64,000 bases of DNA. Origin: Thiobacillus denitrificans (GTDB lineage Bacteria; Pseudomonadota; Gammaproteobacteria; Burkholderiales; Thiobacillaceae). Every line of letters begins with the position of its first letter. The stretch's first letter is position 1. The notes under the pieces were generated by a model. The model did no database searches. It saw nothing but the letters and a program-made list of their open reading frames with translations, and had not been told where the DNA came from. Of this stretch, positions 48,090 through 54,880 are shown one piece after another. The stretch spans positions 17,220 to 81,219 of the forward strand of contig DILD01000028.1 of the NCBI GenBank assembly GCA_002424845.1, read 5' to 3'. The translations under genes were made by a program, and so were the position numbers.

Positions 48090-48217
48090 AGGATTACGCT
48101 AAGCGAGTTCTCCCTCTGATGGAACGACTAGCCATTCGACTAAGCCCGCAAGCGGGCAAGTCGCTGGTTATCCCCAATCCTCGCCCGCTTGCGGGCGAGG
48201 GAGTCAACGTAATGCCT
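48090..48217 (+). repeat. REP/RPE-like palindromic repeat carrying a nested 54-bp element
   Basis: CCCTCT[insert]CCCCAAT-CCTCGCCCGC-TT-GCGGGCGAGG; flanking IR AGGATTACG/CGTAATGCCT. Confidence 0.75.
48118..48171 (+). mobile_element. 54-bp hairpin mini-element, copy 1 (intergenic)
   Basis: GATGGAACGACTAGCCATTCGACTAAGCCCGCAAGCGGGCAAGTCGCTGGTTAT; 50/54 identical to 54722-54775; mobility is inferred. Confidence 0.7.
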
Positions 48218-48258
48218 TTATGCCCGCAGGGGTACAACCCGATTAACGGAGATTTGCC

Positions 48259-48597
48259 ATGAAGAAAATCGAAGCCATCATCAAGCCGTTCAAGCTCGAC
48301 GAAGTGCGCGAAGCGCTATCGGATATTGGCGTGACCGGCCTCACTGTCACCGAGGTCAAAGGCTTCGGCCGCCAGAAAGGCCACACCGAACTGTATCGCG
48401 GTGCGGAATATGTGGTGGACTTTCTGCCCAAGGTGAAGCTGGAAGTGGTGGTCGCGGACAGTTTGCTGGAACGCGCGACGGAATCAATCATCAATGCCGC
48501 TCGCACCGGGAAGATCGGGGATGGCAAGATTTTCGTGACGGCGGTGGAGCAAGTGGTGCGCATCCGCACCGGCGAATCAGGCGAGGCTGCAATTTAA
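48259..48597 (+). CDS. glnB: Nitrogen regulatory protein P-II
   Basis: [33 protein letters not shown]; downstream of nadE. Confidence 0.93.
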
Positions 48598-48621
48598 GTC
48601 GGGCTTACCCACAACGGGGGC

Positions 48622-52165: not shown

Positions 52166-52570
52166 ATGTCGGATCACTACGACGATTTGCAGCAGAGCTA
52201 CGGGCGCTGCCTGCGGGAGAAGAACTTCATCGAGCGTTTCTATGAAATCTTTCTGTCCAGCCACCCGGACATCGCTCCGATGTTTGCAGAAACCGATTTC
52301 CAGAAGCAGCGTATGGCCCTGCGTCGGGGTATCAGCGCAGCGATCTCGCATGCGGCCGGCAGTTCGCTTGCCCGCCGTACGATCGACCAGATGGCCGACG
52401 CGCACTCGCGCACGGGCCACGCGCCGGTGCCTCCCCAGCTTTACCCCTATTGGCTGAACAGCCTGCTGCAGGCTGTCAGCGAAACCGATCCCGCAGCGAA
52501 TCCGCAGTTGATCGAGCGCTGGCGTCAGGGCATGACGGTTGTAACTGACACCTTCATCAAACATCACTGA
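52166..52570 (+). CDS. Single-domain globin
   Basis: FIERFYEIFL, MF..TDF..Q, proximal His in AHSR, YPYW. Confidence 0.82.
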   Translation: MSDHYDDLQQSYGRCLREKNFIERFYEIFLSSHPDIAPMFAETDFQKQRMALRRGISAAISHAAGSSLARRTIDQMADAHSRTGHAPVPPQLYPYWLNSLLQAVSETDPAANPQLIERWRQGMTVVTDTFIKHH

Positions 52571-53436
52571 GCGGCGCCACCAAAGTCTTCCCTGACGCGC
52601 AGGTAGCGTGGAAAGCGCGGCAGCCCGTTTTTCGTCAGGTGTTGATAACGATAGGTGATGCGGGTCCCAATGGGGGGCGGTTGACGGCGTATCGCATCGG
52701 AGAGCCCGCTGCCGAGCCCGAAGCGTTTGCCGTCTGGCATTTCCATCTGCAATGCTCCGGTCATGCCCTGATATTTGCCTTTTCCCGGCGTGTGGCCGAC
52801 CACGACCGCTTCAGCATCCTGCCAGGGTTTCAGCTTCAGCAGCACATCGCTGCGTCCAGTCAGGTAGGGGGCGTCGGCACGGTGCAGCATCAGGCCTTCG
52901 CCACCTGCGCGGATCACGGCATCGAGTTGCTTTGTCAACGCGGCATGACTGGTCACGCGCGTCTGTCCCACCGCCTGGAGCCAGGGCACTTTGGCTTCGG
53001 CAGCGATTGCGCGCATCTGCCGGACGCGCGCGCTGAAGTCGCCAGCTGCACCGGGTAATTCGAAAATCAGATAGCGCACCTGTCGCCAGTCGGCATCTAC
53101 GGGTTCGATTTTTCGTACCGTCCCCGACAGTGCGTCGAAACGGTCACGGCCAATCCACAATTCGCCATCCAGCGGAACTGCCGGGAAATTTCTTGTGAAC
53201 CAGACCGGCGCCGGAACGATCCCCCCGCCGCGGAAGCGCAGGGTGTCCCCGTCCCATTGCGCACGTACGCCGTCGAGTTTCTCGCTTACCCAGTACTGGG
53301 TAACATCGATGTCAGCGGCATACGTCTCCGCCAAAAGCATCGCCGGAGCAGGCGGGCTGTCGGCCCATGCCGGCGGCGAAGCCAGCGCCAGCAGCACCAG
53401 CCAGAGTGCGGAGAGTGGCGGTGCTAGTCCAGCCAC
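52564..53436 (-). CDS. Minimal ATP-dependent DNA ligase with N-terminal signal peptide (Lig E-like)
   Basis: SEKLDGVR, LDGEL, GEGLML, LLKLKP, GSG, PRFP; signal LWLVLLALASPPAWA. Confidence 0.9.
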   Translation of the reverse strand: MAGLAPPLSALWLVLLALASPPAWADSPPAPAMLLAETYAADIDVTQYWVSEKLDGVRAQWDGDTLRFRGGGIVPAPVWFTRNFPAVPLDGELWIGRDRFDALSGTVRKIEPVDADWRQVRYLIFELPGAAGDFSARVRQMRAIAAEAKVPWLQAVGQTRVTSHAALTKQLDAVIRAGGEGLMLHRADAPYLTGRSDVLLKLKPWQDAEAVVVGHTPGKGKYQGMTGALQMEMPDGKRFGLGSGLSDAIRRQPPPIGTRITYRYQHLTKNGLPRFPRYLRVREDFGGAAQ

Positions 53437-53906
53437 TTGTGCAGGAACTGCGCGTGACCCATGGCAGGGTCGAGCTGATAGGCCATGAAACCCAACCGCT
53501 GGTACAAGGCACGCGCGGACGTATTGCCGTCCAGTACCTCCAGCGTCAGTTTGCAGGCGTCGCGTTCGCGGGCGATCGCCTCGACCTCGGCAAACAGCAG
53601 TGCCGCGATGCCCCGGCCGCGGTGGCTGGAGGCGACCACTACGTCATGCACGTTGACAAGCGGACGGCAGGTAAACGTGGAAAAGCCCTCGATGGCGTTA
53701 ATCAGTCCGACCGGCGTGTCGCCGTCGAACGCCAGTACGCTGAAAATGAAGGGACGCGCGGCAAGCGCATCGAGCAGATTGACGCGCGCATAGTCGGACA
53801 GCGGTTCGCCGCCGCCCGCCGGATCGCGCATGTAATGATCCATCAGATCGATCAGTGCGGCGGCATGTGCCGGATCGCCGTAATGGGCGCGGACGATTTC
53901 GATCAT
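53424..53906 (-). CDS. GNAT N-acetyltransferase
   Basis: NVHDVVV, HRGRGIA, LEVLDGN..ARALYQRLGF. Confidence 0.9.
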   Translation of the reverse strand: MIEIVRAHYGDPAHAAALIDLMDHYMRDPAGGGEPLSDYARVNLLDALAARPFIFSVLAFDGDTPVGLINAIEGFSTFTCRPLVNVHDVVVASSHRGRGIAALLFAEVEAIARERDACKLTLEVLDGNTSARALYQRLGFMAYQLDPAMGHAQFLHKWLD

Positions 53907-54880
53907 TCGATGCGCATCGACAGGTCCACCGCGCGAATATGCTTGGTGAGGCTGCCGATGGAAATGCGATCGACGCCGGTTTCGGCCACCGCGCGCACCG
54001 TTTCCAGCGTGATGTTGCCGGAGGCTTCGAGCAGGGCGCGGCCATGGGTGACTTGCACCGCGTGGCGCAGGTCGGCGAGACTGAAGTTGTCGAGCAAGAT
54101 GAGCGGTGCGCCGGCGCTCAGGGCCTGTTCGAGTTCGTCGATATTTTCCACCTCGATCTGCACGCTGACTTTGTCCTCTGCCAGCCGGAACGCCGCTTCC
54201 AGCACCTCCGCGATGCCGCCTGCCGCCGCGATGTGGTTTTCCTTGATCAGGATGCCGTCGTACAGGCCCACGCGTTGATTCTGCCCGCCGCCCACCCGCA
54301 CCGCGTATTTCTCGGCGATGCGCAGGCCGGGCAGGGTTTTTCGGGTATCCAGAATCGCCGCATGGGTGCCGCGCACGGCCTCGACATAGGGCCGGGTGGC
54401 GGTGGCCACCGCCGACAGGGTTTGCAGGAAATTCAGCGCCGGGCGTTCGGCGGTCAGCAGCGCGCGCGCATTGCCGTGGATGTCGGCCAGCACGTCGCCG
54501 GCCGCCACGGTGTCGCCCTCGTTGACCCGCCACTCGATGGCGCAACCGAGGTCGAGCGCCTTGAAACAGGCGTCGAACCAGGGCCGGCCGGCGATCACCG
54601 CGGTTTCGCGGGTGATGACGCGGGCGCGGGCGGTTTGCATCTGGGGGATGAGCCGGGCGGTGAGGTCATTAATCGCCTTGGGCGCGCGCAACGCATCGTT
54701 CGCCCCCTCCCCCTTGAGGGGGTAACCAGCGACTTGTCCGCTTGCGGGCTTAGTCGAATGACTAGTAGTTCCATCAGAGGGCTGGGGAGAGGGTGAAGCC
54801 CCTTCGCGCGGCCCTATCAGGTCTTCTTCCAGTGCGCGCGCGACGTCGGATAAAACCTGATCTACATTCAATTCAGACAT
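53903..54880 (-). CDS. nadC: Quinolinate phosphoribosyltransferase with ~47-aa repeat-derived insertion
   Basis: ER.ALNF, DTRKT.PGLR, LIKENH, EVE, LLDN, EASG, IS.G.LT; insertion between EEDL and DLTA. Confidence 0.96.
   Translation of the reverse strand: MSELNVDQVLSDVARALEEDLIGPREGASPSPQPSDGTTSHSTKPASGQVAGYPLKGEGANDALRAPKAINDLTARLIPQMQTARARVITRETAVIAGRPWFDACFKALDLGCAIEWRVNEGDTVAAGDVLADIHGNARALLTAERPALNFLQTLSAVATATRPYVEAVRGTHAAILDTRKTLPGLRIAEKYAVRVGGGQNQRVGLYDGILIKENHIAAAGGIAEVLEAAFRLAEDKVSVQIEVENIDELEQALSAGAPLILLDNFSLADLRHAVQVTHGRALLEASGNITLETVRAVAETGVDRISIGSLTKHIRAVDLSMRIE
54668..54817 (-). repeat. In-frame REP/RPE-like palindrome insertion in nadC
   Basis: CCCTCTCCCCAGCCCTCT[insert]CCCCTCAAGGGGGAGGG encoding PSPQPS...PLKGEG. 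Confidence 0.85.
54722..54775 (-). mobile_element. 54-bp hairpin mini-element, copy 2 (coding, DGTTSHSTKPASGQVAGY)
   Basis: GATGGAACTACTAGTCATTCGACTAAGCCCGCAAGCGGACAAGTCGCTGGTTAC on minus strand; mobility is inferred. Confidence 0.7.

Follow-up and report, generated by a model that had tools for sequence, protein, structure and literature searches.

A gene-less 54-nucleotide hairpin element nested in palindromic repeats of Thiobacillus and its relatives

Two nested copies at the nadE-glnB and nadC loci

The window analyzed here, a stretch of 64,000 nucleotides from a Thiobacillus denitrificans contig (DILD01000028.1), contains two copies of a 54-nucleotide hairpin element (the 54-mer), each lying inside a longer palindromic repeat (the host repeat). 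Copy 1 (48118-48171, plus strand) is located in the spacer between nadE, encoding NAD synthase (46461-48068, plus strand; Pfam NAD_synthase and CN_hydrolase, and orthologs), and glnB, encoding P-II (48259-48597, plus strand; Pfam P-II). Copy 2 (54722-54775, minus strand) is inserted in frame within nadC, the open reading frame (ORF) for quinolinate phosphoribosyltransferase (53903-54880, minus strand; ORF list, Pfam QRPTase_N and QRPTase_C), where it reads DGTTSHSTKPASGQVAGY. As the original prediction stated, the two copies are identical at 50 of the 54 positions, both have CCCTCT as left flank and CCC(C) as right flank, and neither target duplication nor terminal inverted repeats is found at either copy.

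The host repeat is split by the 54-mer at both loci. At nadE-glnB, its left part (48059-48117, plus strand), delimited by orthologs and a relative's contig, ends in CCCTCT and supplies the last codons and the stop codon of nadE. Its right part (48172-48247, plus strand) comprises CCCCAA, the hairpin CCTCGCCCGC-TT-GCGGGCGAGG, and a tail to ...CCCGATTAAC, judging from orthologs and the consensus of the approximately 12 copies in the source genome. In the sense of nadC, the 5' part of the host repeat (54776-54820, minus strand) is recognized from query positions 81-233 that are missing from most orthologs, and the 3' part (54668-54721, minus strand), consisting of the right hairpin arm and a tail to ...GCGATTAAT, from the orthologous host repeat without the 54-mer. 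The nadC frame stays open through the nested insertion, and the whole inserted block is 153 nucleotides, or 51 codons. Copy 1 sits in host module 1 (CCCTCT^CCCC, the caret marking the insertion point; 83.4 bits with the covariance model) and copy 2 in host module 2 (the hairpin arm; 75 bits), so the predicted difference in position was borne out.

The genome was searched as one Thiobacillus metagenome-assembled genome (MAG), G000, of 2.02 Mb in 97 contigs and about 75% complete. The host repeat family consists there of a CCCTCTCCCC module, AA, a CCCTCYCCC...GGGRGAGGG hairpin, and a tail ...ATGCCCAAACCGATTAAC; other copies lie at C4:21941, C8:14126, C10:4581, C16:548, C62:24246, C74:21185, and C74:26678. 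The 54-mer is not restricted to the two copies from which it was predicted. G000 has a third at C9:15805-15858, again as CCCTCT^...^CCCC, and a 45-nucleotide hairpin variant at C56:16917-16965, and many more copies are found in relatives. Logan contigs (public short-read assemblies) of the source samples end at both 54-mers of the window (48137-48161 and 54728-54757), and loose contig ends carry the flanks of additional copies absent from the MAG. An allele missing just the 54-mer did not appear among these contigs, which by their nature could not reveal one. Since short-read assembly breaks at 54-mers, the copy number in G000 is a lower bound.

Separate insertion, distribution, and fold of the element

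The orthologs of the two loci should be noted, since they separate the history of the host repeat from that of the 54-mer. In most Thiobacillus genomes, 48059-48247 is wholly missing at nadE-glnB and the nadE stop codon overlaps the glnB ATG, while the remaining genomes have one to four tandem host repeats. A public-run contig of a relative joins 48058 directly to 48248, which is the ancestral state. Likewise, nadC of most Thiobacillus species reads EDVGSGDLTA without insertion. At that same point, an in-frame host repeat replaces the conserved GSG in G000, G008, G018, G024, and G035, and thus in at least five Thiobacillus species; in G008, G018, G024, and G035 it contains no 54-mer. The host repeat is itself an insertion and a mobile element resembling the Rickettsia palindromic element (RPE).

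The 54-mer forms a further step. Three states are found among the nadE-glnB orthologs: no repeat, the host repeat only, and the host repeat with the 54-mer. A precise empty site is seen in G024, G002, and G003, whose host repeat contains no 54-mer. The 54-mer is in host module 1 in G000 and G020, the latter copy being partly deleted, and in module 2 of the orthologous host repeat in G035 and G008. The same series of states is found at nadC, where G008 keeps the empty site, ...CCTTCT^CCCCTCAAGG.... Excision of the 54-mer had been predicted to restore an intact host palindrome, and these empty sites show that palindrome at both loci. Furthermore, a 54-mer in G027 splits the coding sequence of a signal peptide with no host repeat around it, and the ortholog in G000 is uninterrupted.

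These comparisons bear on the reading that the 54-mer never inserted on its own and is only an optional part inside a longer composite repeat, which spreads as one unit. The right-hand host tails of copies 2 and 3 in G000 are alike, and tandem arrays of host repeat plus 54-mer occur in G024:C16 and G008:C74, as this reading would have it. However, host repeats lacking the 54-mer at the exact same place, one orthologous host repeat holding it at two different positions in different species, and insertions into six unrelated repeat families and into non-repeat coding DNA exclude the composite reading for practical purposes. The sequence comparisons identify the 54-mer as a real mobile DNA element, gene-less and hairpin-forming, that lands in other palindromic repeats. 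The predicted independent insertions of a non-autonomous element into a repeat of the repetitive extragenic palindromic (REP) or RPE kind are accordingly supported by precise empty sites in relatives and by many further copies.

In the partly deleted copy of G020 (L166, C4), both the 3' third of the 54-mer and the host hairpin are gone. The deletion runs between two GCGGG(C/T)(A/G)AG stretches, one at the apex of the 54-mer and one at that of the host hairpin, and the apex sequence that they have in common promotes such deletions. As had been noted from the sequence, the apical stem of the 54-mer is the exact reverse complement of the host hairpin at 48183-48196.

The element is common in iron- and sulfur-oxidizing Betaproteobacteria. 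Its exact core pattern is present in 13 of 36 other Thiobacillus genomes, and the same pattern read backwards gives no match, indicating that the recurrence of the 54-mer is not due to chance. At least 119 stretches of the genome collection have the pattern; they come from Thiobacillus, Gallionella, Sideroxydans, Sideroxyarcus, and other MAGs of the Nitrosomonadales type. The covariance model finds the element in 21 of 41 Thiobacillus genomes, the copy number per genome ranging from 0 to 14 across the genus. Among 91 Gallionellaceae genomes (≥90% complete), 65 match a strict pattern, giving 1334 copies in all and as many as 116 in a single genome. The 54-mers of different bacterial families are nearly identical to the consensus, a pattern of a transposing family with young copies.

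Members are 54 nucleotides long with an apical loop of AA, or about 60 with a loop of AAAAGAC and the like. A 12-nucleotide leader (GATGRAACNACT) precedes one long hairpin of three helices, in which unpaired A residues are conserved. The predicted long hairpin is real, with a minimum free energy as single-stranded DNA of -11.7 kcal/mol (z = -3.0), although its outer helix is AGCCA/TGGTT and not the ACTAG/CTGGT that had been proposed. In the alignment, 92.8% of the cells are paired and compensatory double changes occur at 8 of 16 pairs; none of 500 shuffles reaches these values, and controls with slid pairing collapse. One pair position is G·T in 35 of 48 sequences. This pair becomes a C·A mismatch on the opposite strand, which means that only the strand as written forms the full structure. 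The tetranucleotide at the foot of the hairpin is CTAG (C in 125, T in 129, A in 140, and G in 116 of 143 copies) or CTAA; GTAG and GTGG are not found there. Two of the three sense frames and one antisense frame are open, in accordance with the three stop-free frames noted at the outset. Together with a length divisible by three, the two open sense frames permit in-frame survival in genes such as nadC.

A conserved fold with covariation and a strand-specific G·U/G·T pair would also be expected of a functional structured RNA or regulatory hairpin (small RNA, terminator, or leader) under selection at each locus. The position of copy 1 in the 5' region of glnB, and a variant hairpin in a conserved non-coding region at G000:C56, point in the same direction. 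The copies themselves do not behave in this way. Orthologous copies diverge at approximately the rate of their surroundings (36 of 43 positions identical between G000 and G020), and they are deleted in G020 and degenerate in G035; such decay is the behavior of selfish DNA rather than of a maintained RNA. Most relatives have no element at either locus, and copies lie within unrelated genes. Intergenic copies are oriented with and against the flanking genes almost equally (15 versus 13). Inside ORFs, 33 of the 38 copies are in the sense orientation, and a bias in that direction is expected, given two open sense frames against a single antisense one. Rfam gave no relevant match, at gathering thresholds or at E ≤ 10, for the window region and the variant locus. 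Taken together, a locus-by-locus RNA function is highly improbable. A hammerhead-like reading of CTGATGA at the left junction was also rejected, since many copies have CTGATGG, there is no GAAA core, and Rfam gives no hit.

The 45-nucleotide variant (GCATAGCCAA...TGGTTAAT) has the apical stem GCCGC/GCGGC and is found in several Thiobacillus genomes (G000:C56 in L018, approximately 1440-1850; L003, L011, L150). There it occupies a conserved non-coding stretch of about 400 nucleotides between a toxin-antitoxin pair of the HepT/MNT type and a DAHP synthase gene. It also occurs in unrelated contexts (L022, L053, L071, L089, L116), often within REPs of the GTAG type. ARAGORN, run for transfer-messenger RNA, found nothing at this locus. 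The variant could be an unannotated RNA gene or merely an old insertion.

Target choice and the candidate enzyme

Junction statistics were taken from 143 junctions, and the restored targets of 128 insertions were folded. T is at position -1 in 128 of the 143 junctions and C at -2 in 105. The C-richness of the right flank is largely that of the host families. The predicted site specificity CCCTCT^CCC therefore does not hold beyond the three copies in G000; only T at -1 and C at -2 are general. A T both precedes the element and ends it, so that the boundary can be shifted by one nucleotide: the junction reads ...CT^[GATG...GGTTAT]^N or equally ...C^[TGATG...GGTTA]^T, and the target can be read as C^T. 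Only nine copies are informative as to whether the junction T is part of the element or of the target.

At least six unrelated palindromic repeat families carry the element: the CCCTCTCCCC family of the window; a CGTC-tagged, dRS3-like family (GTCATT^CCSGCG...GGAATCCAG); and the families ...TTCGCT^GCGCGG..., ...CTGAGCCT^GTCGAAG..., ...CCGGCCT^TCGCCGG..., and ...CCTCCT^CGCAATGAC.... Within a single MAG, at least three of these families, coding DNA, and the element itself are hit. Self-nesting occurs at ...ACT^AGCC in six loci. In the folded targets, the insertion lies in the 5' arm in 60 cases, the loop in 26, the 5' edges in 19, and the 3' arm in 9.

The junctions speak against several familiar classes. 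The ends of the element (GATGG... and ...GGTTAT) are not inverted repeats and the filled/empty pairs show no duplication, unlike a classical miniature inverted-repeat transposable element moved by a DDE transposase. The core sites R'' and R' of integron attC are RYYYAAC and GTTRRRY, with crossover at G|TT. An attC or cassette origin was rejected, since the junctions are not at G|TT, the targets have no GTT, and the sequence is conserved unlike attC. Serine- and tyrosine-recombinase models were discarded as well, because the junctions share no core of 2-8 bp.

The original prediction named HUH/Y1 and IS110 enzymes as possible movers, and the two fared differently. An IS110/IS1111 origin would make the element a miniature derivative placed by a DEDD transposase that is guided by a bridge RNA to REP-like targets. 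Elements of this group, such as ISPpu9 and IS621, insert without target duplication and often into REPs (in part PMC8450116), and the CT dinucleotide at the left junction of the 54-mer is also compatible with them. However, one bridge RNA specifies one target, of about 11-14 nucleotides, and here the targets are wholly different within single genomes, including coding DNA and the element itself. In addition, 54 nucleotides are too short for donor ends of the IS110 type, type A insertions do not show CT again at the right junction, and 11 of the 26 Gallionellaceae genomes with at least 20 copies have no hit to the IS110 transposase (PF01548). An IS110-type enzyme is thus very improbable.

HUH/Y1, in contrast, may be the enzyme family. 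Our preferred reading, to which we give a probability of about 0.5, is that a Y1 (HUH) transposase of the REP-associated tyrosine transposase (RAYT)/TnpA_REP kind moves the element in trans; no specific enzyme gene was identified. The element would move as single-stranded DNA, its hairpin being recognized and its ends being cut and rejoined by a Y1 tyrosine transposase encoded elsewhere in the genome. Hairpin repeats may be preferred as targets owing to the single strands that they expose or to Y1 enzymes already bound to them. The absence of duplication, the single active strand, the CTAG at the foot of the hairpin, and the C-T at the left junction (105 of 143 copies, with the one-nucleotide ambiguity permitting CT^ or C^T) all fit this reading. 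TnpA_REP of E. coli and S. maltophilia cuts single-stranded DNA at C|T, 5' or 3' of the REP hairpin, e.g., TGCC|TGAT (PMC3333891, PMC8266576), and the single structured strand of the element matches the active top strand of Y1 systems (PMC3333891).

Copy number is also associated with Y1 genes. A Y1 gene is present in all 26 Gallionellaceae genomes with at least 20 copies, whereas copy numbers in the 15 genomes that lack such a gene are 0-9 (Fisher p = 0.005, uncorrected for phylogeny). In Thiobacillus, the element occurs in 18 of 30 Y1-positive and 3 of 11 Y1-negative genomes.

A number of observations weigh against a Y1 enzyme. Neither the element nor a weak look-alike flanks any of 24 Y1 loci (nhmmer, and the covariance model with filters off), and the one copy that lies 0.8 kb from a RAYT is inside another gene, as expected by chance. 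Both canonical RAYTs of G000 are flanked by their own GTAG REP and not by the element, and TIRYT-type genes are flanked by GGGGTCAG inverted repeats. The complete Thiobacillus genome G063 has four good copies and no Y1 hit with either model, and seven Gallionellaceae genomes (≥90% complete) have 6-9 copies and no Y1. Conversely, many Y1-rich genomes have no copies, copy number does not follow the number of Y1 genes (Spearman -0.08), and no one Y1 subclass is common to all element-rich genomes. At the right end, cutting falls just before or just after A-T instead of C-T. Elements of the IS608 type have an orientation bias toward the lagging-strand template. In the complete chromosome G066, whose origin was placed near 1.38 Mb by GC skew, the 55 copies show no such bias (30-31 concordant versus 24 discordant, in this one genome).

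The RAYT class associated with GTGG REPs was considered as a partner. It is found in nine Thiobacillus genomes, eight of which have the element, but the most element-rich ones (G008, G024, and G003) do not have it. The two RAYT genes of G000 (C32:1972-2409 and C94:11489-11926, one with an in-frame TGA) are each bracketed by inverted GTAG REPs (GTAGGGCGCAATAACCGAAGGGCATTGCGCC); they are typical REPtrons with no relation to the 54-mer. Longer Y1 genes of the TIRYT type, or subclass 2.1 (L157, L158, L160, L161, L227, L229, L230; G000:C83:7049-7372), are flanked by short inverted repeats, GGGGTCAG...CTGACCCC (or GGGGACAG), which match the GGGGWSAS motif of Di Nocera et al. 2013. Identity of the CCCTCTCCCC host family with that inverted repeat was rejected, since the TIRYT-type genes have GGGGTCAG or GGGGACAG instead.

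Several of the points just given would be accounted for if the same mobile hairpin is moved by an uncharacterized structure-specific nuclease or recombinase that recognizes hairpins at both donor and target and is possibly phage- or plasmid-borne and only transiently present. This is the main rival, and we hold it to be plausible but tentative. The lack of a linked Y1 gene, the copies in Y1-less genomes including G063, and the absence of replication-strand bias agree with such an enzyme. Structure-directed targeting is suggested by the preference for the 5' arm and loop of target hairpins over the 3' arm, and the presence of one copy in a phage-type contig and of near-identical 54-mers across bacterial families also counts in favor of this rival. 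However, clustering of the ORFs of ≥90 amino acids in 149 element-bearing loci revealed no protein family enriched beside the element, the plasmid and phage collections gave no match, and the association of high copy number with Y1 in 26 of 26 genomes would be left unexplained.

That phage-type contig (L240:380-470; IMG/VR UViG 3300021090_000894), the only one found in IMG/VR, encodes an endolysin, an Rz-like spanin, and a tail-completion protein; directly upstream of the endolysin gene lies a host repeat in which a 54-mer is nested. The contig is possibly a route of horizontal spread between hosts.

Pairs of copies about 2 kb apart in G066:C1 (2286229/2288190 and 846056/848185) share rare apical variants (loop CAGG; stem TCGTAAACGA), though they lie in different host repeats flanking ordinary housekeeping genes. 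The shared variants suggest short-range transposition or gene conversion between neighbors. The possibility that such pairs are the ends of an autonomous element was dismissed, since the intervening genes are housekeeping ones (ispD/ispF/tsaB-like, kinase, rhodanese/TusA, lnt).

Within the Y1 framework, a more specific and speculative idea, which we consider rather unlikely, is that the element, lacking a dedicated enzyme, is a hyperparasite that inserts at nicks made by the Y1 enzymes (RAYT/TIRYT) of various REP families beside their own hairpins. If true, this would account for landing next to C-T in at least six unrelated palindromic families, for the lack of a linked dedicated gene, and for high copy number only in the presence of Y1 genes, with relic copies after Y1 loss. 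The element would then be the first known parasite, among mobile elements, of the REP-RAYT machinery, and could serve as a tractable reporter for REP transposition.

Relation to known palindromic repeats

The element appears closest to REPs and REPINs in design and probable mechanism, and to the Rickettsia RPE in its behavior inside genes. REPs and REPINs moved by RAYTs (PMC3333891, PMC8266576, PMC3116915, PMC6006769) are likewise short, gene-less, and hairpin-forming. They share with the element a strand-specific fold with conserved irregularities, a conserved tetranucleotide at the hairpin foot, and the lack of both target duplication and inverted ends, and the junction of the element would be consistent with the C|T cut made by TnpA_REP. 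Both are found between genes and sometimes in frame within them. The differences should also be noted. The tag of the element is CTAG/CTAA, whereas that of REPs is GTAG/GTGG, and a 12-nucleotide leader precedes the hairpin. There is no REPtron, i.e., no Y1 gene flanked by the element. The insertion boundaries are exact with demonstrable empty sites, which are rarely seen for REPs, and the element prefers the interiors of other repeat families and of itself. It does not occur in inverted doublets (REPINs). Since both the GTAG tag and a REPtron are lacking, we do not file the element as a REP/RAYT member.

IS200/IS605 elements and the miniature PATEs, which depend on the Y1 enzyme TnpA, also have neither duplication nor inverted repeats, use subterminal hairpins of a single active strand, and have a short fixed sequence as the left flank of the insertion. 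Unlike these, the element has a single hairpin in place of distinct left- and right-end hairpins, requires only YT on its left flank and not a tetra- or pentanucleotide, and shows no lagging-strand-template bias in G066; a full-length parent of it was not found.

The Rickettsia RPE and intragenic REPs are palindromic selfish repeats that stay in frame in functional genes (PMC3733652), and persistence of this kind in nadC holds for both the host repeat and the 54-mer. The likeness is one of behavior only, since the RPE is unrelated in sequence and bacterial group and the element is much shorter and nests in other repeats.

Insertion sequences that target REPs are known. REPs within other palindromes were noted in passing by Di Nocera et al. 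(PMC3733652). In all of these cases, as here, mobile DNA uses palindromic repeats as landing sites. There, however, each repeat has one dedicated target palindrome, or the invader is a full insertion sequence with its own transposase, whereas here one gene-less element of 54-60 nucleotides enters at least six repeat families, coding DNA, and itself, with empty sites. Such an invader was not found in the searchable literature. The original suggestion that the repeat is undescribed was upheld in that no Rfam family and no paper in that literature corresponds to it. New here are its occurrence in Thiobacillus, the stepwise ortholog series, the case for excluding IS110, the association of copy number with Y1 together with its counter-examples, and the test for replication bias.

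Most of the evidence on how REP-like hairpins spread still comes from in vitro cleavage by RAYTs, and clean REP insertions with empty sites are rare. The element offers exact boundaries, many filled/empty pairs, nested and self-nested insertions, and copy numbers that range among close relatives from 0 to over 100, which makes it a good natural system for finding the enzyme and working out how targets are chosen. Short-read assemblies break at every copy, and the in-frame inserts of 18-20 residues that the element creates in housekeeping enzymes such as that encoded by nadC are relevant to annotation and protein evolution. More generally, small repeats can serve as habitats for still smaller mobile DNA.

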